Assembly: GCA_947627995.1 (NCBI GenBank)
Contig: CANQYE010000001.1
Location: forward strand, 8,889-72,888
DNA: 64,000 nucleotides
Reading direction: 5' to 3'
Source of the DNA: an uncultured Bacilli bacterium
GTDB taxonomy: Bacteria; Bacillota_I; Bacilli_A; RF39; UBA660
This document shows, piece after piece, positions 17,540-45,692 of the stretch. The position numbers and the translations under genes were made by a program. The notes beneath the pieces are model-generated. The model worked only from the letters and a program-made list of their open reading frames with translations, ran no database searches and was not told the origin of the DNA. Numbering within the stretch: position 1 is the stretch's first letter; every line of letters begins with the position of its first letter.

Positions 17540-17606
17540 TGTGTTATTTTTTTTATTGAGTTATAATTTAAGTTTATGATATTATTTATTTGTAGAGGTG
17601 TGAAAT

Positions 17607-18302
17607 ATGAAGAAGACAATATTATTATTTATAATAATTAGTTTAGCATTTTTAAGTGTAGTTGGTTGTGCAAATAAAAAAAATCTAATTTCAAAGGATG
17701 CTATAAAATTTAAAGAAGAGTATGAAAGTTTAAATAATACTTCAAATTCAGATGAAAAAGTACATAGAAGTTTATCTATTTCTGAAAATAATCCGTTTGT
17801 TTATTCTAATGCAAAAGAGATTTTAAAAAAAATCGAAAATAAGGAAACTTTTTATATTTATTTTGGTTCATCTTATTGTCCATGGTGCAGAAGCGTTATA
17901 GAAAAAGTAATTGAAGTAGCTAAAAAAAATAATATAAGCACTATTTATTATATTGATATATGGAATGGAGATCATAATGAAATTTTAAGAGATACATACG
18001 AACTTGATGAAAATAATGAAATAAAGTTGGTTTCAAAAGGCGCAGAAGAATATCAAGATCTATTACGTTATTTAAATAACGTATTAGGAGAATATACATT
18101 AACAAGTAAAGATGGCCAAAAAATATTGGTTGGGGAGAAAAGAATCTTTGCTCCGAACTTTATTTATATTAAAGATGGAAAAGCTGTTAAATTAGAAAGT
18201 GGTAATTCAGATAAGCAAACAGATTCCAGAATGGACTTAACTGAAGAAATATTAAAAGACGAAGAAATTAAGTTCAATGAATTTTTTAAAAATGATAATT
18301 AA
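17607..18302 (+). CDS. Thioredoxin-fold lipoprotein (CPWC motif)
   Basis: Lipobox VVGC after a signal peptide. YFGSSYCPWCRSV. Confidence 0.55.
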   Translation: MKKTILLFIIISLAFLSVVGCANKKNLISKDAIKFKEEYESLNNTSNSDEKVHRSLSISENNPFVYSNAKEILKKIENKETFYIYFGSSYCPWCRSVIEKVIEVAKKNNISTIYYIDIWNGDHNEILRDTYELDENNEIKLVSKGAEEYQDLLRYLNNVLGEYTLTSKDGQKILVGEKRIFAPNFIYIKDGKAVKLESGNSDKQTDSRMDLTEEILKDEEIKFNEFFKNDN

Positions 18303-18383: not shown

Positions 18384-19211
18384 ATGGAAAAATTTAAAGA
18401 AATAGAAAGAAGTATAATTAAAACTTATCGAAAAGAAATTTGGAGCAAATTTATAAAAGGAGTTAAAAATTATAAGTTAATTGAAGAACACGATAAAATA
18501 ATGGTATGTATAAGTGGAGGGAAAGACTCTTTTTTATTAGCTAAATGTATACAAGAATTAAAAAGACATTCTATAAAAAACTTTGATGTTTGTTATGTGG
18601 TAATGGATCCTGGTTATAGTAAGAATAATCGTAAACGTATCTTAGATAACGGAAAACTTTTAAATATACCAATTCAGATATTTAAAACAAATATATTTGA
18701 TGCAGTTGAAAATGTTTCATCAAGCCCCTGTTATTTATGTGCTAGAATGAGAAGAGGGTATTTATATAGTAAAGCGCAGGAATTAGGATGCAATAAAATA
18801 GCTTTGGGCCATCATTTTGATGATGTTATAGAAACAACCTTACTTTCAATGTTTTATGGTTCAGAAATAAAAACTATGATGCCAAAATTACATAGTGAAA
18901 ATTTTAAAGGTCTAGAATTAATAAGGCCATTATATTTAGTTAAGGAAAAATCTATCTTGGCTTGGTGTAATTTAAACAATTTACAATTTCTTAATTGTGC
19001 ATGTCATTTTACTGAAAACCATTTTTCAATTAATGATGGAACCAGTAAACGAAAAGAAATAAAAGAGTTAATCAAAAAATTGAAAGAAACTAATGACAAT
19101 GTTGATAATAATATTTTTAAATCATTGGATAATATTAATTTAAATTGTGTATTGGGAACAAAGAAAAATAGTAAATATAAAAGTTTTTTAGAAGATTATG
19201 ATAAAAAATAA
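18384..19211 (+). CDS. PP-loop ATPase, TtcA/TtuA-like tRNA thiolation enzyme
   Basis: SGGKDS PP-loop plus CxxC pairs (CYLCARMRRG, CACHF). Confidence 0.6.
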   Translation: MEKFKEIERSIIKTYRKEIWSKFIKGVKNYKLIEEHDKIMVCISGGKDSFLLAKCIQELKRHSIKNFDVCYVVMDPGYSKNNRKRILDNGKLLNIPIQIFKTNIFDAVENVSSSPCYLCARMRRGYLYSKAQELGCNKIALGHHFDDVIETTLLSMFYGSEIKTMMPKLHSENFKGLELIRPLYLVKEKSILAWCNLNNLQFLNCACHFTENHFSINDGTSKRKEIKELIKKLKETNDNVDNNIFKSLDNINLNCVLGTKKNSKYKSFLEDYDKK

Positions 19212-19260
19212 AATATATTAGAATTTTTTTGTTAAAAAATGTATATGATATAAAATATTC

Positions 19261-19292
19261 TTGACTTGCGGGGGGGGGTATTAGTTTATAAT
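19261..19292 (+). promoter_or_regulatory. Promoter TTGACT-(20 nt spacer containing G9)-TATAAT, candidate phase-variable
   Basis: TTGACT at 19261-19266. G9 at 19270-19278. TATAAT at 19287-19292. Spacer is 20 nt; 17-18 would be optimal. Confidence 0.5.
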
Positions 19293-19315
19293 ATCTTTAG
19301 AAAGGAAAGAATGAA

Positions 19316-20608
19316 GTGAAAAAGAAAAGTTTATTATTTACAATCATTGCTTTAGTGCTTTTTATACCAAAAGTATATGCAGTTGAAACAGTAGATTGCT
19401 CAAATGGAAGACCTAAAGCACAAGTCGGTACAAGTTGTTATTCATCATTAAATGATGCATTAGAAAGTGCTAATGAAGAAAATAACACAATTAAATTATT
19501 AGATGATGTTTCTAACTACACCATAAAGATTTCAAAAGATCAAACAATAGTACTAGATTTAAATACTCATAAAATAACTGCTCCTGATAATAGTTGGGCA
19601 ATTTACAATGAAGGAAATCTAACTATTACTAATGGAACAGTGTTAGGAAATAGCAAAAGTGCTGCTATTCGTAACAATGGAAAAAAATTAGTTGGTAAAT
19701 CATTAACTGTTCAATCTTCTTTTATAGCTATTATTAATAATGATGTAGTAGCAATAGATGGTGTTGAACAAGAAAGTGGTCGACCTACATTAATTTTAGA
19801 AGATAGTACAATTAATGGAAATGCAGGATTTAGTGGTTCCGGTTTACAATTAGGCGGAAACGCAAATGTTAAAAATGTGAAGTTTACGGCTACTAAAGGA
19901 AGTGCATTAATTCGTGTTTTCGACGGAAAAACAGAAACAGAAGTTGTACTTGATAATTTATCTACAACAAATAGAGGTCTTATTAATGCTGGGAAAAATA
20001 GCACTAATGATGAACATGGAATTAAAGTAGAAATTAAAAATATATCTGAAAATGATAAATCAAAATTGACACTATCTCCTGAAGGAGATGCTGTAATTAT
20101 TCCGGATAAAGAGTATGCAGACAAAGTTTTAAAATTTGCACTTAAAGGTTCAACAATTATTATTCCAGAAGGATTCTATATGGATAAAATTGATATACGT
20201 GAAGGTGTAAATATAAAGTTTGTTGATGGAAATAATGGAAAACAAATATTAGAAAAAAATGAAGATGGTACTTATAACATTGTTAAAAGAGCAGATTATT
20301 CAAAAATTGATAAATTACTAAATGAAATCGAAAAATTAAATAAAGATGATTATACAAAAGATACATGGGATGCATTAGAAAAAGCAATATTAGCTGTTGA
20401 TTATGATAAAACTGCAAAAGAACAAGATAAAGTTGATGCAATGGCTAGCGTAATTGAAAAAGCAATGAATAATCTTGTTAAAATAAAAAAAGAAAATACA
20501 ACTATAAATCCAAACACTGGTGATAGTTCTATAATTTATATAATAATTGGTGGAATATCAGTACTTGGAATAGTTACTAGCGTTTTATATTTAAAAAAGA
20601 ATAGATAA
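19316..20608 (+). CDS. Cell-wall-anchored surface protein with NPNTG sorting signal
   Basis: GTG start after AAAGGAAAG. Signal peptide. NG-rich repetitive core. C-terminal NPNTG + hydrophobic segment + KKNR. Confidence 0.6.
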   Translation: MKKKSLLFTIIALVLFIPKVYAVETVDCSNGRPKAQVGTSCYSSLNDALESANEENNTIKLLDDVSNYTIKISKDQTIVLDLNTHKITAPDNSWAIYNEGNLTITNGTVLGNSKSAAIRNNGKKLVGKSLTVQSSFIAIINNDVVAIDGVEQESGRPTLILEDSTINGNAGFSGSGLQLGGNANVKNVKFTATKGSALIRVFDGKTETEVVLDNLSTTNRGLINAGKNSTNDEHGIKVEIKNISENDKSKLTLSPEGDAVIIPDKEYADKVLKFALKGSTIIIPEGFYMDKIDIREGVNIKFVDGNNGKQILEKNEDGTYNIVKRADYSKIDKLLNEIEKLNKDDYTKDTWDALEKAILAVDYDKTAKEQDKVDAMASVIEKAMNNLVKIKKENTTINPNTGDSSIIYIIIGGISVLGIVTSVLYLKKNR

Positions 20609-20618
20609 TAAATTAATG

Positions 20619-20643
20619 GAAATAGGAAACTATTTCTTTTTTT
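20619..20643 (+). terminator. Rho-independent terminator
   Basis: Stem GAAATAG-gaaa-CTATTTC followed by T7. Confidence 0.55.
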
Positions 20644-24467: not shown

Positions 24468-24495
24468 TTAGCACTCATATATTGACAAGTGCTAA
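24468..24495 (+). promoter_or_regulatory. CIRCE operator (TTAGCACTC-N9-caAGTGCTAA)
   Basis: Near-perfect match to the HrcA-binding inverted repeat. Confidence 0.7.
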
Positions 24496-24514
24496 GCATA
24501 ATATTATAATGTAA

Positions 24515-24544: not shown

Positions 24545-25549
24545 GTGATATATTTGGGTCCAAGACAGAAACAATTGCTTAAAGAAATTGTGGAAAGTTA
24601 TATAAAAACAGCTAAACCTATTGGATCAAAGGCTTTATGCATTAAATTTAAATGCTCAAGTGCAACTATCCGTAATGAAATGGTAGCTTTAGAAAATTTA
24701 GGTTTAATAACAAAAACGCATTTATCCTCAGGAAGAGTCCCTAGTGAGAAAGGGTATAGGTATTATGTTGAAAACTTAATGGTACCAAAAGAACTTTCTG
24801 GTGATGATATGTTAAAATTACAAACGATTTTCCATAATAATTCATTACAAGTAAATGATGCAATTAGTAAATGTGTAGAAATTATATCGGAAATTACAAA
24901 TTATACGTCAGTTGTTTTAGGAAAAAGTTCAAAAGATAATTTACTTAGTCAATTAAGTATTATTCCTATTACTGAAAATAAGATTGTAGCACTTGTTTGT
25001 ACTAATAAAGGCTTCGTGGAAAATAAACAATTTACTATACCAAAAGATATTTCAATTAATGAAGTTGTAAAAACAAGTGAAATGATTAATAAAATGTTAA
25101 TTGGTACGCCTGTAAATGAAATTAGTAGTAGAATGGAATTTGAAATAAAACCTATTATTGCTAAAAAAATAAAACAATATGAAGCAGTTTATAATATTTT
25201 CTATGATGCTTTTAATGATTTTACAAAGAGTAATATTATTTTTGGTGGAAAAACTAATATATTAAAACAACCTGAATATGATGATATTAATGAAGTAAAA
25301 AAAATTGTAGAAAAGTTAGAAGATGAAACTCTTGTGTCTCGTATAGAAACAAAAGAAAAAGGAATAAATATTTATATTGGTGACGAAACGGAGTTTGATC
25401 CTAATGTAACAATTATCAAAACCCATTACAACATAGATGGTGAAGAAGGAACTATTGCAATTGTTGGACCAAAAAGAATGGAGTACGATAAAGTAGTAGG
25501 ACTTTTAAATTATATTGAGAAAGAATTAAATGGTGAAAAAGATGACTAA
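24545..25549 (+). CDS. hrcA: Heat-inducible repressor HrcA
   Basis: RQKQLLKEIVESYIKTAKPIGSKAL. Start may be the TTG at 24554. Confidence 0.85.
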   Translation: MIYLGPRQKQLLKEIVESYIKTAKPIGSKALCIKFKCSSATIRNEMVALENLGLITKTHLSSGRVPSEKGYRYYVENLMVPKELSGDDMLKLQTIFHNNSLQVNDAISKCVEIISEITNYTSVVLGKSSKDNLLSQLSIIPITENKIVALVCTNKGFVENKQFTIPKDISINEVVKTSEMINKMLIGTPVNEISSRMEFEIKPIIAKKIKQYEAVYNIFYDAFNDFTKSNIIFGGKTNILKQPEYDDINEVKKIVEKLEDETLVSRIETKEKGINIYIGDETEFDPNVTIIKTHYNIDGEEGTIAIVGPKRMEYDKVVGLLNYIEKELNGEKDD

Positions 25550-28023: not shown

Positions 28024-28047
28024 TAAATGATATTGGAAAGGTTAATT

Positions 28048-29853
28048 ATGCAAAATTATAATTATAAAAATAGAAATGAAGTGCCAGAAAAGTACAAATG
28101 TGATTTATCATCATTATTTAAAAATGAAGAGGAATTTAATGAATGCCTTTTAGAAACACAAAAAGAAATATCTGAATTAAAAAAATTTAAAGGATGTACA
28201 AAAGATTCAGTTTTACTTTTTGAATTTTTAAAAGAAGAAACAAAAGTTATTGCCAAATTAGATAATTTATATACATATGCATCCTTAATGAATGATGTGT
28301 TATTAGGTAATTCTGCTAATATTGAAAGAAAAAATAAAGTGGAAATTTTAAATAGTGAATTTACATTAAATACTTGTTTCTTTGTGCCAGAATTATTAAA
28401 ACTTTCCAAAAAAGAATATCAATCTTTATTTAATAATAACCCTAGATTAAAAGAGTTTAAAGCAGAATTAGATGATACTTATAGATACAAAGAATATGCT
28501 TTATCAGAATCTGAGGAAAAAATACTTTCGGATTTAGTGCTTGCAACTGATCATTACGAAGATATCTCATCTACTCTTTTAGATAATGTCCATAATTATG
28601 GGAAAATTAAATTGCAAAATGGTGAAAGTGTAATAATCACTTCTAACAATTATCGTACTTTGCTTAAAAATAAAGATAAAATTATAAGAAAAAAAATATA
28701 TAATTCATATAATAAAACTCTTGATCAATATGGAGCAATATCTGCTGGTTTATTAAATAATTATATTAGTATGAATAATTCATTATCAAAATCACATCAC
28801 TATAAAAATAGTTGGGATGAAAAATTGTTCAATTATAACTTAAGTGATAAAGTATTTATAACATTAGTTGATACTATAGAAAGTAATTTAAAAATTTTAC
28901 AAAAATTTTATCAATTAAAAAGAAAAATTTTAAATTTAGATACTTTGCATAGTTATGATTTATATTTAGAGCCTAAAAAATCGAATAAAAACTATACAAT
29001 CGAAGAAGCACAAAAAATTACTATAGAGTCTTTAAAAGTTTTAGGAAATGAATATAGCTTAAAATTAAAAAAAGTATTTAATGATAGACATATTGATTAT
29101 TGTTCTTATAAAGGCAAATGGTCTGGAGGATATTGTACTTCTCCAATTAACAATAGTAGTAGAATATTGATGAGTTATACTAATGATTTAAAGTCAATAT
29201 CAACTATTGTTCATGAATCTGGACATGATGTTCATAGCCAATTCATTAATGAATTTAATCCATTACATTATCGTTTTCCGCAAACAATTGTTTGTGAAGT
29301 AGCATCATTGGTTAACGAATGTTTACTTTCATATTATATTGCAGAAAATGGAAAAACTAAAGACGAAAGATTATCAGGTATATATAATATTTTATCTGTT
29401 ATTGCATCAAATTTATTTGACGCAGTTAGAGAAGGAAAAAATGAGCAAGATATGTATGAAAGAGTATTTTCGGGTGATTATTTAACGAAAGATTATTTAG
29501 ATAATTTGACATATAAGTCATTAGAAAAATATTATGGTGATTCTCTGAAACTGGATAAATATTCTAAAAATTCTTGGATAACAAGATCACATTATTTTAA
29601 TAATTTTTATCTATATAGTTATGCTATTTGTATAAGTGTTGCTTCAAACGTAGCTTCTAAAATATTATCTGGTGATACAAAAATGTTAAATAAGTATATT
29701 GAATTTTTAAAACAAGGATCTGATAAGTGTCCAAAGGAAGCATTTGCTGTTTTGGGTATAAATTTGGAAGATAAAAGTGTTTATGAAAATGTAATTAAAT
29801 ATTTTGATTCATTAATTTCAAAATATTATGAAATTCTTGAAAAGGAGGAGTAA
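28048..29853 (+). CDS. pepF: Oligoendopeptidase F (M3B family)
   Basis: HESGH zinc motif. About 600 aa. The PepF N-terminal pattern is present. Confidence 0.8.
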   Translation: MQNYNYKNRNEVPEKYKCDLSSLFKNEEEFNECLLETQKEISELKKFKGCTKDSVLLFEFLKEETKVIAKLDNLYTYASLMNDVLLGNSANIERKNKVEILNSEFTLNTCFFVPELLKLSKKEYQSLFNNNPRLKEFKAELDDTYRYKEYALSESEEKILSDLVLATDHYEDISSTLLDNVHNYGKIKLQNGESVIITSNNYRTLLKNKDKIIRKKIYNSYNKTLDQYGAISAGLLNNYISMNNSLSKSHHYKNSWDEKLFNYNLSDKVFITLVDTIESNLKILQKFYQLKRKILNLDTLHSYDLYLEPKKSNKNYTIEEAQKITIESLKVLGNEYSLKLKKVFNDRHIDYCSYKGKWSGGYCTSPINNSSRILMSYTNDLKSISTIVHESGHDVHSQFINEFNPLHYRFPQTIVCEVASLVNECLLSYYIAENGKTKDERLSGIYNILSVIASNLFDAVREGKNEQDMYERVFSGDYLTKDYLDNLTYKSLEKYYGDSLKLDKYSKNSWITRSHYFNNFYLYSYAICISVASNVASKILSGDTKMLNKYIEFLKQGSDKCPKEAFAVLGINLEDKSVYENVIKYFDSLISKYYEILEKEE

Positions 29854-40575: not shown

Positions 40576-40652
40576 GTCCTCGTAGCACAACTGGAAAATG
40601 CAGTCGCCTCCTAAGCGACAGATTGGAGGTTCAAATCCTCTCGGGGACGCCA
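40576..40652 (+). tRNA. tRNA-Arg (anticodon CCU), CCA encoded
   Basis: Hand-folded cloverleaf. Acceptor GTCCTCG/CGGGGAC. Anticodon stem GTCGC/GCGAC with loop CTCCTAA. T-arm GGAGG-TTCAAAT-CCTCT. Length 77 nt. Confidence 0.9.
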
Positions 40653-40665
40653 TTTTAGTAATTAT

Positions 40666-40696
40666 AAAACTGATTTAAAAGTCAGTTTTTTATTTT
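40666..40696 (+). terminator. Rho-independent terminator after the tRNA
   Basis: AAAACTGA-8 nt-TCAGTTTT then T-run. Confidence 0.55.
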
Positions 40697-40788: not shown

Positions 40789-40817
40789 TTGACATCGGGG
40801 GGGAATATTGTTATCTT
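40789..40817 (+). promoter_or_regulatory. Promoter TTGACA-(17 nt spacer containing G7)-TATCTT, candidate phase-variable
   Basis: TTGACA at 40789-40794. G7 at 40797-40803. Weak -10. Confidence 0.4.
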
Positions 40818-41711: not shown

Positions 41712-41730
41712 AAAATAATTATATTATTAA

Positions 41731-41762
41731 AAAGTTCAAAGGTAATATTTGAACTTTTTTTT
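41731..41762 (+). terminator. Rho-independent terminator
   Basis: AAAGTTCAAA-7 nt-TTTGAACTTT then T8. Confidence 0.65.
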
Positions 41763-41827: not shown

Positions 41828-41856
41828 TTGACAAATATAAGAAATAATTTTAAAAT
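41828..41856 (+). promoter_or_regulatory. Sigma-A-type promoter (TTGACA-17-TAAAAT) of the tad-like operon
   Basis: Consensus -35, 17-bp spacer and 5/6 match at -10, about 30 nt upstream of the tadZ-like ATG. Confidence 0.5.
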
Positions 41857-41887
41857 TATTATATGATAGAGAATGGGAAGGGTTATT

Positions 41888-42658
41888 ATGGCGAAGACAA
41901 ATAGAGGTAAAACTATTGCTGTTTTTTCTGCAAAAGGCGGAGTTGGGAAAACGGTTTTTACTTTAAATTTAGCTGGAATATATAAACAACTTAATAAAAA
42001 AGTTTTAATAATAGATCTTGATTTAACAAATGGGGGTATAGCTTTATCATTGAATAGAAGAGTAGATAGAACAATCTATAATTTATTTGATGATTTAAAT
42101 AATAATCGTTATAAAGAATTTAAAGATTATGTAACAAACTATGAAAAAAATTTAGATTTTATTGCTTGTCCTAAAGATCCAAGAGATGCAAATAAAATTG
42201 ATGCAAAATATATCGATATTATTATCGAGCGAGCTTCGTATTTATATGACGCAGTAATTTTAGATACTTCTCATGTATTAAATGATATTAATTTAGTTGC
42301 TCTTGATAAAGTAGATAAAATTTTATTTTTAGTTACAAATGATCCTTTAGATTTAAAAAATGTTAAGTCTTTAATAAGTATATTTAAAAATTTAGATAAA
42401 ACAAATTATAAAATGATTTTAAATAATTCTTGCAATTTAAATAAAGATTATTTTTCATTATATGATATCAAAAATATTTTAAAAACAAATATTGATTATA
42501 TTTTAACTCAAAATTTTTATATCAAGAACATAGATATATTTCTTCTTAATGGGAAAATATTTATTATGGATAAGAAGATTGCTTCATCCAAAGATTATGG
42601 AGTAATGTTAACTATCGCAACTGATATATTTAAAGAAGGTGATGGAAAAAATGAGTAA
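41888..42658 (+). CDS. ParA/MinD-family ATPase, TadZ/CpaE-like
   Basis: Deviant Walker A AVFSAKGGVGKT. Sits upstream of the CpaF-type ATPase. Confidence 0.6.
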   Translation: MAKTNRGKTIAVFSAKGGVGKTVFTLNLAGIYKQLNKKVLIIDLDLTNGGIALSLNRRVDRTIYNLFDDLNNNRYKEFKDYVTNYEKNLDFIACPKDPRDANKIDAKYIDIIIERASYLYDAVILDTSHVLNDINLVALDKVDKILFLVTNDPLDLKNVKSLISIFKNLDKTNYKMILNNSCNLNKDYFSLYDIKNILKTNIDYILTQNFYIKNIDIFLLNGKIFIMDKKIASSKDYGVMLTIATDIFKEGDGKNE

Positions 42659-43973
42659 GTCTTTAATTGAAGAATTTAATGTTAAAGTAAATAAGCAAAA
42701 ACCTTATATAGTAAATGATTATGATATTTTTCCAGATAAAAATTTATTAGATGAATTACGTAATAAGATAATTGGTAATTTAATTGATAAAGAAATTCCT
42801 AAAGAAAAAATTAATGAGTTTATTGATGATGAAATAAATTTGGCTTTAGAGGGGCATAATTTAACCAATTTAGAAAGAAGTCATATATATAATTTAATTG
42901 ATAATGAAATAAATGGTTTTGGGCCTTTAAATGAAATTTTGAAAGATAATAATGTAACAGAAATAATGGTAAATAGTCCTAAAGAAATTTATATAGAAAC
43001 TGATGGAAAATTAGTTAGAGATGAAAGTATTTCATTTATTAATAATGAACATATTATTAGAACTATTCAAAGGCTTATCTCACCGATGGGTAAAACAATA
43101 AATACTAAAAATCCTATTGTTGACTCAAGGCTAATGGATGGTTCAAGGATTAATGCTGTAATCCCACCATTATCTATTAAAGGTCCAGTATTAACTATTC
43201 GTAAATTTAAGCCTTATTTAAATACAATTGATGATTTAATAAGATCTGGTTCTTTAACACCATATATGGCAAGATTTCTTGAAGCTGCTGTAATTGGTAA
43301 ATTGAACATTATTATTTGTGGTGGATCAGGAAGTGGAAAAACAACTCTTTTAAATATTTTAAGTAGTTTTATAAACGATAATGAAAGAATTATTACTATT
43401 GAAGATGCCGCAGAATTAAAATTAAAACAAAAACATGTATTATCCTTAGAAACACGTCCGAATAATTATGAAAATGAAGGAGAAATTACTATTCGTGATT
43501 TAGTAATCAATTCATTAAGAATGCGACCTGATAGAATTATTGTCGGTGAAGTTCGTGGGAAAGAAGCATTTGATATGATGCAAGCTATGAATACTGGACA
43601 TGATGGGTCAATTACTACTCTTCATGCTAATAGTCCTAAAGATGCTTTAAATAGGTTAGAGACAATGGTTATGATGAGTGATATGGGTCTTCCACTAAAT
43701 GCTGTAAAAGAATATATTTATAATGCAATAGATTTAGTTATAAATGTTGAACGATTAAGTGATGGTAGACGAAAAATAACAAGTATATGTGAAGTTGATA
43801 AAATAGAGGATAATGAAATAAAGTTAAAAGAGATATTTGCTTTTAAAATTAATGGATTATCTTCAAAAAATATGGTTACAGGAGAATATATTTTATATAA
43901 ATTTATTCCAAAAGTTTTTTATAAACTAAAGAAAAGAGGAATTACATCTTTAAGTGATATTTTTGAAAAATAA
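42651..43973 (+). CDS. CpaF/TadA-type (VirB11-like) secretion ATPase
   Basis: NVTEIMVNSPKEIYIE. Walker A GGSGSGKTTLLN. Walker B, His box and Asp box present. Confidence 0.8.
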   Translation: MSKSLIEEFNVKVNKQKPYIVNDYDIFPDKNLLDELRNKIIGNLIDKEIPKEKINEFIDDEINLALEGHNLTNLERSHIYNLIDNEINGFGPLNEILKDNNVTEIMVNSPKEIYIETDGKLVRDESISFINNEHIIRTIQRLISPMGKTINTKNPIVDSRLMDGSRINAVIPPLSIKGPVLTIRKFKPYLNTIDDLIRSGSLTPYMARFLEAAVIGKLNIIICGGSGSGKTTLLNILSSFINDNERIITIEDAAELKLKQKHVLSLETRPNNYENEGEITIRDLVINSLRMRPDRIIVGEVRGKEAFDMMQAMNTGHDGSITTLHANSPKDALNRLETMVMMSDMGLPLNAVKEYIYNAIDLVINVERLSDGRRKITSICEVDKIEDNEIKLKEIFAFKINGLSSKNMVTGEYILYKFIPKVFYKLKKRGITSLSDIFEK

Positions 43974-43987
43974 AAGAAGGTGATTAG

Positions 43988-45010
43988 GTGAAAAATATAA
44001 ATTGGGAATTATTAATTTTTCAAGTTATTATTGCAATAATTATTGTTTTTCTAATCATTTTTTTCATAAAAATAAAATCAAATTTAAAATTAGAAAAAAG
44101 ATTCTCATATTTTAGTTTAAATACATTAAATGAAGAAAAAGAGCTTTCATTCCTAGATTATATTTTTAATAAGTTATGGAAATTTGTTCATAATTATGCA
44201 AAATTTTTAAATCATTTTAAATGTTTTAGAAAATATGGGTTAAAATATGAGAAATACATTCCATCAAAAAATAAATTTAAAATTAATGGTACTGATTATG
44301 TTGTAATAAAATTTATAACTGGATTAATTGTTGTTTTAGTAGCAGTAATATATAATATTATTAATAGAAATAATATTAATTTCCTTATTTATGTTATTTT
44401 ATTTTTATTTAGTTATACAATTGTAGATATTTTACTAGATATAAAATTTAAAAGAAAAATAAAAAATGTAAAAAAAGATTTGTATAAAACTATTATTATC
44501 ATGAATAATTCTTTTAAATCTGGAAAAACAATATTAAAAGCGGTTGATAATGTAAGAAAATCTTTAAAAGGCGATATAGCAGATGAATATAATAAAATTT
44601 ATACAGATTTATGTTATGGACTTTCTATTGAATCAGCATTTCAAAGATTTTATGAGCGAGTTAAAATAGAACAAATAAAATATATTGTTCTTTCAATATC
44701 TATTTTAAATAAAAGTGGGTGCAATATTAATGAGATATTTAATTCAATTGAAAAAAATGATTTAGATGATCAAAAAATTAATAATACAATAAAAACACAA
44801 TTATTATCTAGTAAATTATTTTTTAATTGTGCTTTAAGTTTGCCAATAATTTTAGTAAGCATAATATTTATTATAAATAGAAATTACTTCAATCCTTTTA
44901 TTTTTACAATTGTAGGTGTTTTATTTTTGATCTTATTAATTAGTTTATATTTATTATATATAATTCTAATAAAAAAGATATTCGAGGTTGATATAGATGA
45001 AAGAGTTTAG
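43988..45010 (+). CDS. TadB-like inner-membrane platform protein (T2SS-F domain)
   Basis: GTG start. TM-flanked cytoplasmic domain in GspF-like topology. Position after the ATPase. Confidence 0.55.
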   Translation: MKNINWELLIFQVIIAIIIVFLIIFFIKIKSNLKLEKRFSYFSLNTLNEEKELSFLDYIFNKLWKFVHNYAKFLNHFKCFRKYGLKYEKYIPSKNKFKINGTDYVVIKFITGLIVVLVAVIYNIINRNNINFLIYVILFLFSYTIVDILLDIKFKRKIKNVKKDLYKTIIIMNNSFKSGKTILKAVDNVRKSLKGDIADEYNKIYTDLCYGLSIESAFQRFYERVKIEQIKYIVLSISILNKSGCNINEIFNSIEKNDLDDQKINNTIKTQLLSSKLFFNCALSLPIILVSIIFIINRNYFNPFIFTIVGVLFLILLISLYLLYIILIKKIFEVDIDERV

Positions 45011-45692
45011 TTTTACAAAAAAGATTTATCGAAAAAAAACTATTAATAGAATTAAGAATAAAATTAATTTATTAGGAAATTCTAAATACGATGTTAATAG
45101 TTTTTTAATAGTTCGGCTTATTTTAAGTTTAATTTTATTTTTTATTTTAGTTTTTTCTAAATCATTGATTATTTTGGCACCTATTATATCTATAATATTT
45201 TATTTTGCATATGAATATTTTTTATTAGATATCGCTATAAAAAGAAGAAGGGATTTATTAAATAGAGAAGCGGTATTCTTTTTCGAAGTTTTAAGTACTA
45301 CTTTAAAGACTACAAATAGTTTAAAAAAAGCATTAAGTTTAGTTGTTAAAAATATTAATAATGATTTGTCTTATGAATTTAGTAAAGCTTTAAAAGAAGT
45401 GGAGATTGGGAAAAGTTTTGCTTTGAGCTTAGAGGAAATGCAAAAAAGAATTCCGAGTGAAGAAATTAATAATTTAATTTTAAATATTTGTGAGGCAATG
45501 CGTTCCGGTAATGATATAGAAAATACTTTAAATATTGAAATAAATTCATTAAGAGAAAAAAGATTTTTAATTATTAAAAATAAACTATCAAAAATACCAT
45601 TAAAAGTTTTGATTTTAACTATTATTTTAATTGGTCCAATAATTGCCATAATTTTTTATGGGCCTACAATAATTGATTATATATTAAGTTGA
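44997..45692 (+). CDS. TadC-like inner-membrane platform protein (T2SS-F domain)
   Basis: Same architecture as the previous ORF. Overlapping start. Confidence 0.5.
   Translation: MKEFSFTKKIYRKKTINRIKNKINLLGNSKYDVNSFLIVRLILSLILFFILVFSKSLIILAPIISIIFYFAYEYFLLDIAIKRRRDLLNREAVFFFEVLSTTLKTTNSLKKALSLVVKNINNDLSYEFSKALKEVEIGKSFALSLEEMQKRIPSEEINNLILNICEAMRSGNDIENTLNIEINSLREKRFLIIKNKLSKIPLKVLILTIILIGPIIAIIFYGPTIIDYILS

Follow-up and report, generated by a model that had tools for sequence, protein, structure and literature searches.

In promoters of the sigma-70/sigma-A type, the spacing of the -35 and -10 hexamers is optimal at 17 +/- 1 nucleotides (nt), and promoters with a spacer of 20 nt are very weak. 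In Mycoplasma hyorhinis, a member of a low-GC lineage related to Bacillota, a poly-A tract is located in the promoter spacers of several vlp surface-protein genes, which are turned ON and OFF in a combinatorial manner. This Vlp system is cited in PMC11868660. Poly-G tracts between the -35 and -10 hexamers have been described for porA of Neisseria meningitidis and for tp0126 and the tpr genes of Treponema pallidum, with an optimum of 17 nt in case of tp0126 (PMC7864442). In the AT-rich genomes of Campylobacter and Helicobacter, G/C homopolymers of at least 8 nt form contingency loci, which are concentrated in genes for surface structures and include intergenic tracts (PMC8355987, PMC2823697). 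Here we describe a candidate for a related arrangement in a 64-kb stretch of DNA with 24.4% GC from an uncultured Bacilli bacterium (contig CANQYE010000001.1 of assembly GCA_947627995.1), hereafter referred to as the window. It contains a run of nine G (G9) in the spacer of the putative promoter of a gene coding for a secreted protein with an anchor signal (promoter A and gene A, together locus A), and a run of seven G (G7) in the spacer of a second promoter of this kind (promoter B and gene B, together locus B).

The layout of promoter A reads TATTC TTGACT TGC GGGGGGGGG TATTAGTT TATAAT ATCTTTAGAAAGGAAAGAATGAA GTG. Its spacer of 20 nt (19267-19286) comprises the trinucleotide TGC (19267-19269), the G9 tract and the segment TATTAGTT (19279-19286). 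The G9 tract, the hexamers and the spacer length had been described in an earlier note on this DNA, whose coordinates all proved to be correct. The -10 hexamer is located 24 nt upstream of the GTG start of gene A, and the two hexamers match the consensus at 11 of 12 positions. The site was skipped by our promoter scanner because the program takes only spacers of 16-18 nt. Runs of at least nine G are expected 0.0025 times per window under a model of independent, identically distributed bases and 0.008 times under a first-order Markov model. The combination TTGACW-N0-3-G7 is found at two sites of the window and in none of 100 dinucleotide-preserving shuffles. The pattern TTGACW-N15-21-TATAAT equally occurs at just two sites, promoter A and a full-consensus TTGACA-17-TATAAT (24482-24510) located upstream of hrcA (24545-25549) and grpE, which is likely the promoter of a heat-shock operon. 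We have rejected a structured RNA in the promoter and leader region in light of its folding score (z -1.3), and an Rfam search returned no RNA family at locus A or locus B.

The product of gene A carries a signal-peptide-like N-terminus (MKKKSLLFTIIALVLFIPKVYA) and ends with NPNTGD, a hydrophobic, presumably transmembrane (TM) segment and the tail KKNR. The description of this protein as sortase-anchored in the earlier note holds in part. It is supported by a score of 20.0 bits against the LPXTG cell-wall anchor domain of NCBIfam (TIGR01167), which is above the cut-off of 15.9. On the other side, Pfam Gram_pos_anchor scores the protein below threshold, and the canonical LPXTG pentapeptide is replaced by NPNTG in gene A, by NPETS in gene B and by NPNTS in the only close relative of the gene A product, a protein of 60% identity termed P0002. 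We take these motifs to be NPxTG-like variants of the kind that some sortases of class B type recognize. The window itself holds no sortase gene, since the single match to the sortase signature TLxTC among its open reading frames (ORFs) belongs to a protein of 608 residues (28027-29850) that is too long for a sortase. Apart from the anchor domain, the gene A product showed no match to a protein family, and its remoter matches have in common just a helical repeat near the C-terminus. A single-sequence AlphaFold model, with a beta-rich N-terminal and a helical C-terminal part, was of poor quality (pLDDT 45) and was not used for a fold search.

The comparison of tract length between strains, for which the earlier note had named uniform length as contrary evidence, has revealed alleles with G7, G8 and G9 at locus A in independent assemblies, with flanks that are otherwise identical for more than 100 nt (Table 1). 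The same loci were obtained by exact-protein look-ups in independent ENA and Logan assemblies; the tract lengths are those of consensus assembly sequences, and the window may have reads in common with one of the G9 assemblies. The corresponding spacers extend over 20 nt (G9), 19 nt (G8) and 18 nt (G7), the latter being a natural counterpart of the shortening to 17-18 nt that had been predicted for a loss of two to three G. Over 7.3 kb, the G7 strain type shares 99.4% identity with the window; for the contigs carrying G8, the identity amounts to 99.95% (L011) and 99.91% (L013), with the deletion of one G in the tract as sole insertion or deletion (indel). Three nucleotides past the tract, a single-nucleotide polymorphism (SNP) separates a T, found with G9 or G8, from a C, found with G7 or G8. 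The presence of G8 on both backgrounds suggests more than one slippage event. The C on L011, which is otherwise identical to the window over 4.4 kb, would reflect either homoplasy beside the tract or a very short patch of recombination. A search for the exact flanks of the variable tract in metagenome contigs of the Joint Genome Institute gave no match, the organism being absent there, and an exact look-up of the FtsA of the window for further strains returned no record. Nor did the literature contain any mention of the sample and assembly accessions that we searched for.

At locus B, the G7 tract begins 2 nt past the -35 hexamer TTGACA and the spacer to the probable -10 element would measure 17 nt. 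Window-type assemblies (the window, L006 and L007) share G7, whereas G8, equivalent to 18 nt, is present in the other type, represented by five assemblies (L022-L026, with DRR848749 and DRR849030 among them) from three projects, and this difference is the only indel at that place. With 15.6 bits, the gene B product scores marginally under the cut-off of TIGR01167. Since both genes are followed by their own terminators, each is monocistronic. Judged by their signal peptides and anchor signals, both products are predicted to be exposed at the surface. Both tracts are long enough to slip, for which we assume a limit of 7-8 G or C, and both are polymorphic in length between close strains with constant flanks. 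A motif scan of all ORFs of the window identified anchor-like C-termini in genes A and B only, and the window contains only two runs of at least six G or C, so that the two anchor-type genes are the ones marked by the two long G runs. No run of six or more G is found in the coding sequence of the window or in about 20 kb of flanking genome (contig NODE_5), and hence none elsewhere in about 84 kb. Among 37 long homopolymers (A/T of at least 7 nt, G/C of at least 5 nt) in regions covered by other assemblies, two vary in length, and these are the two promoter G tracts; 34 A/T runs of 7-9 nt, with several intergenic ones among them, are constant. The only indel between strains besides the G tracts is an insertion of 12 nt (ATATGTGAATAA) at 17588 in the other strain type, in an intergenic region before a gene for a thioredoxin-like lipoprotein (17607-18302).

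The described layout is retained in a second organism. The gene for P0002 is located in GCA_947627975.1 (contig CANQYB010000009.1, L018), and contigs of this kind show 8-15x coverage in samples where window-type contigs show about 3x, from which we infer a different, sister organism. Its promoter, CTTGACT-G8-TAGTATTATTA-TATAAT, has a spacer of 19 nt. The next two genes encode TasA/camelysin-like proteins (Peptidase_M73 and Laminin_G_3 domains) with SipW-type signals, which are 77% identical to each other, and each is preceded by CTTGACT-G8-TAGTATTA-TATAAT with a spacer of 16 nt. When the promoters are aligned, conservation is seen in TTGAC, the G run and the -10 element, in contrast to the diverged flanks and surrounding intergenic sequence; the five promoters of the two organisms, which are paralogues or orthologues, have TTGAC followed by a G run in common. 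At the level of sequence, with hexamers that are conserved in homologous promoters, the G9 tract is thus located between the putative -35 and -10 elements of promoter A.

Together these properties lead us to propose, with a probability of roughly two in three, that the G tracts constitute a slipped-strand (simple-sequence-repeat) promoter switch that would set the expression of surface proteins. This presumes that the promoters are used as such, that transcription depends on tract length and that switching is frequent and reversible within a population. The earlier note had advanced such a poly-G switch as a candidate, and it has gained support from the G7, G8 and G9 alleles, the second variable locus and the conservation of the layout in the sister organism. 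In the proposed mechanism, each anchor-type gene of the window would be under control of its own sigma-A-type promoter with a run of G7-G9 right after the -35 hexamer. Replication slippage would lead to the gain or loss of G's, which would shift the spacing of the -35 and -10 hexamers to 18, 19 or 20 nt in gene A and to 17 or 18 nt in gene B. Given the optimum of 17 +/- 1 nt, transcription should range from high to very low depending on the length of the tract, and each state should be heritable, though reversible in principle. A low or OFF state of gene A is predicted for the window, whose G9 allele gives 20 nt, and an ON state for the other strain, where G7 gives 18 nt. Gene B, with its spacer of 17 nt in the window, would be ON there; in the other strain, the spacers of both loci would measure 18 nt.

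Several observations weigh against this proposal. Spacer length varies from 16 to 20 nt among the five promoters, and the assignments of ON and OFF states are consequently guesses. At locus A, both G8 calls originate from contigs of only 2.7-3x coverage, and G7 and G9 are each found in several samples and linked to the SNP; much of the difference could thus be a stable polymorphism between strains instead of fast switching. Similarly, locus B shows one tract length per strain type, and the three tracts of the sister organism are G8 in four of four assemblies. The putative -10 element of promoter B (TATCTT) is weak. Finally, read-through from a PP-loop ATPase gene upstream of promoter A (18384-19211) could add basal transcription of gene A and would in this case reduce the switch to a control of volume.

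Among the alternatives, none of which accounts for the evidence as a whole as well as the promoter switch, it is hardly credible that the differences in length are artefacts of sequencing or assembly resulting from homopolymer errors of Illumina reads. The low coverage of the two G8 contigs would be compatible with such errors, but G7 is supported by a coverage of 88x and by three separate Logan runs, G9 by the window and no fewer than two ENA assemblies and, at locus B, G8 by the five assemblies, which stem from three projects. In addition, alleles and SNP co-segregate, and the 34 A/T runs of 7-9 nt are constant in the same contigs. We also regard it as unlikely that the tract, although hypermutable, is functionally neutral and that its length would be a passive marker of strains without regulatory use. 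The linkage of G7 and G9 to the SNP in several samples and the invariance of the three sister promoters are both in line with this reading. However, a run of G7-9 devoid of function should decay fast at 24% GC, whereas these runs have been kept at the same position of five promoters despite the divergence of their flanks, are absent from the remainder of about 84 kb and are tied to genes for secreted or surface proteins.

An equally passive role of tract length would follow if the G run was a sequence-specific element of a surface-protein regulon, either as binding site of a repressor or activator or as special contact of a sigma factor or RNA polymerase, with the variation in length being incidental. 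The operator-like recurrence of TTGAC[TA]-(0-3 nt)-G7-9 in front of several functionally related genes is in line with such an element, and for opc-type poly-C tracts, part of the action is ascribed to a regulator (PMC7864442). We nevertheless find it distinctly unlikely, since promoters differ in the number of G in the run (7-9), in the sequence that follows it and in its separation from the -35 hexamer (0, 2 or 3 nt), and since the occurrence of the layout in unrelated lineages of 23-65% GC (see below) fits convergent selection for mutability better than a single conserved DNA-binding protein. Alternatively, gene A could mainly be transcribed from elsewhere, either by read-through from the PP-loop gene or from a promoter-like site TTGTTA-16-TAAAAT (19229-19256), which would place the tract in the 5' leader where it does not control initiation. 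We have found no terminator within 19211-19261, and the site at 19229-19256 matches the consensus at 9 of 12 positions. Still, this origin of transcription appears very unlikely. In DNA as AT-rich as this, matches of 9/12 are no more frequent than by chance (19 compared to 20.3 expected), for which reason we have rejected those reported by the scanner near locus A, while TTGACT/TATAAT is the closer match and its hexamers are conserved in homologous promoters. Moreover, a tRNA gene (40576-40649, the one tRNA identified by Rfam) is located upstream of promoter B, and the short hairpin with T run behind it (40670-40692), which resembles a terminator by its sequence, may insulate this promoter.

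The proposed promoter switch is of a known type and its mechanism is not new; what it would add is its occurrence in an uncultured, spore-forming lineage of Bacillota and its targets, NPxTG-anchored and TasA-like proteins. It shares with porA, tp0126 and the tpr genes a run of about 7-11 G in the spacer of sigma-70-type promoters of surface or outer-membrane genes and the presence of several loci per genome, where in the described cases length sets the spacing, with its optimum of 17 nt, and thereby transcription (PMC7864442). These cases concern Gram-negative or spirochaete pathogens and were proven experimentally by fragment-length analysis and green fluorescent protein reporters, whereas the switch in the present Bacillota of 24% GC is predicted from sequence. 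Among low-GC lineages, the closest analogue is vlp, with its surface-protein genes that each carry a homopolymer-spacer promoter. Unlike vlp, where poly-A tracts precede genes for lipoproteins, we find poly-G in front of genes for wall-anchored or secreted proteins, in a genome with cell-wall and sporulation genes. Against the A7-9 runs that are found everywhere in this genome, the G tract is unique in being unstable and unambiguous. The tracts of Campylobacter and Helicobacter act mostly as intragenic frameshift switches, whereas both tracts of the window reside in promoters.

A scan of metagenomes for TTGACW-N0-3-G>=7-N5-12-TATAAT identified at least 120 loci, which hints at a wide distribution of the TTGAC/poly-G signature. 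As the pattern itself pre-selects promoter-like sites, only the downstream genes and the differences between paralogues are informative, and all following statements refer to the matches listed. Downstream ORFs were signal- or TM-like, as judged by a crude N-terminal heuristic, in 39 of 67 cases (58%) compared to 115 of 699 background ORFs of the same loci (16%), equivalent to an odds ratio of 7 (p 5e-13) for matches that are not independent. The layout is found in unrelated lineages with a GC content of 23-65%, where three recurrent families in front of secreted proteins stand out. In a low-GC family (23-31% GC; L128, L131, L076, L052, L043, L073, L129) with tracts of G8 or G9, a cassette consisting of TTGACAT-G8/9-TATATTA-TATAAT, a conserved leader of 44 nt and a conserved signal region of about 60 residues (MKKIISFLKTDIKIINSY...YALFSFTKTS) precedes mature protein bodies that are unrelated, as illustrated by L128 and L076, whose identity of 91% is limited to 58 residues. 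It is this family, with L128, L131 and L076, that shows the vlp-like combination of a conserved promoter and signal-peptide cassette with divergent bodies. In a family of MKLKKIASLMLAGVMAVSMLAGC lipoproteins (52-63% GC; L034, L035, L063, L067, L104, L116, L137, L145) the promoter reads TTGACACC-G7/8/9-TATGCTATAAT, and in a human-gut family (39-47% GC; L041, L050, L055, L070, L094, L117) proteins of about 1000 residues (MKSNKALARKILCGLLAAGVVGVSGSALA) are preceded by TTGACT-G7-9-ACATAGTGCTATAAT. In both of these families tract length varies among paralogues. Tracts of G11 are located upstream of the genes for surface proteins of 1530 and 2649 residues.

These features lead us to a broader and more tentative proposal, which we hold to be somewhat less probable than its opposite, namely that poly-G spacer switches are a general and so far undescribed way for uncultured Bacillota and other gut and environmental bacteria to diversify secreted and wall-anchored proteins, in a Vlp-like manner with a conserved promoter and signal-peptide cassette on divergent bodies and with several independently switching loci per genome. 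If so, such promoters would be a complement to invertible promoters, which prevail in the present picture of phase variation in gut commensals. For the window, a functional switch would imply that an uncultured AT-rich spore-former varies its wall-anchored surface proteins stochastically and gene by gene, in the way known from Neisseria, Treponema and Mycoplasma, and sortase-type substrates and TasA-like matrix proteins of Bacillota would join the targets of phase variation by promoter spacers. The combination of TTGAC, at least seven G and TATAAT offers a simple signature for candidate phase-variable surface genes in metagenomes. Since the consensus of a metagenome-assembled genome at such tracts is a snapshot of a population, a single assembly cannot provide the state of expression.

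Table 1. Elements of loci A and B, tract alleles at locus A and G8 tracts of the sister organism (positions refer to the window unless a contig or assembly is given)
Feature	Position or assembly	Strand	Remark
-35 hexamer TTGACT, promoter A	19261-19266	+	read directly from the letters
G9 homopolymer, promoter A spacer	19270-19278	+	length-polymorphic, G7/G8/G9 across assemblies
T/C SNP, 3 nt past G tract	19281	+	T with G9 or G8; C with G7 or G8
-10 hexamer TATAAT, promoter A	19287-19292	+	read directly from the letters
Purine-rich Shine-Dalgarno-like stretch GAAAGGAAAG	19300-19309	+	6 nt before GTG start
Gene A, secreted protein of 430 residues	19316-20608	+	GTG start; signal-like N-terminus and anchor signal
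Rho-independent terminator of gene A	20618-20643	+	8-bp stem, GAAA loop, U run; -8.8 kcal/mol, z -3.6
-35 hexamer TTGACA, promoter B	40789-40794	+	pattern scan
G7 homopolymer, promoter B spacer	40797-40803	+	G8 in other strain type
Probable -10 TATCTT with preceding TGT (extended -10)	40812-40817	+	assignment inferred from sequence
Gene B, secreted protein of 288 residues	40845-41711	+	signal peptide and NPETSD, hydrophobic/TM segment, KRKIN tail
Rho-independent terminator of gene B	41729-41762	+	-12.5 kcal/mol, z -5.3
Locus A allele G9 + TATTAG	window; L003 (ERZ27249283); L004/L012 (ERZ27249541)		
Locus A allele G8 + TATTAG	L013 (ERZ27249530)		
Locus A allele G8 + TACTAG	L011 (ERZ27249519)		
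Locus A allele G7 + TACTAG	L001/L009 (ERZ27249276, 88x coverage); L002, L010, L005 (ERR10663722, -23, -25)		
Three G8 tracts, sister organism	L018 749-756, 2184-2191, 3415-3422		consecutive genes

The flanks of the window (L147, L151; contig NODE_5_length_184983 of ERZ27249276) contain the sporulation genes spoVAC/D/E, spoIIP, yqfD, yabP and gpr together with the cell-wall genes femAB (related to peptidoglycan) and mraZ, which identifies the organism as a walled, spore-forming member of Bacillota. A scan of GTDB genomes with FtsA, whose gene follows gene A and has its own promoter, retrieved distant relatives only (45-56% identity) with a non-syntenic neighbourhood and no orthologous promoter; the nearest FtsA among the representative genomes (56% identity) belongs to a genome labelled 'uncultured Tenericutes'.

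Gene B is directly followed by a cluster for a Tad/Flp-like pilus assembly (41873-45692), which consists of genes for a ParA/CpaE-like protein, a CpaF-like T2SSE ATPase and two membrane proteins with a possible similarity to TadB/C. The cluster has its own TTGACA promoter-like site near 41829, and we have rejected a co-transcription with gene B due to the strong terminator following the latter. Across the window, the + strand contains 15.3% G compared to 9.1% C, all runs of at least five G are on this strand, with no C runs of that length, and most long ORFs in the stretches examined have the same orientation; the + strand is the coding one and probably also the leading one. Rfam further identifies a ribosomal protein L10 leader at 2641-2757.

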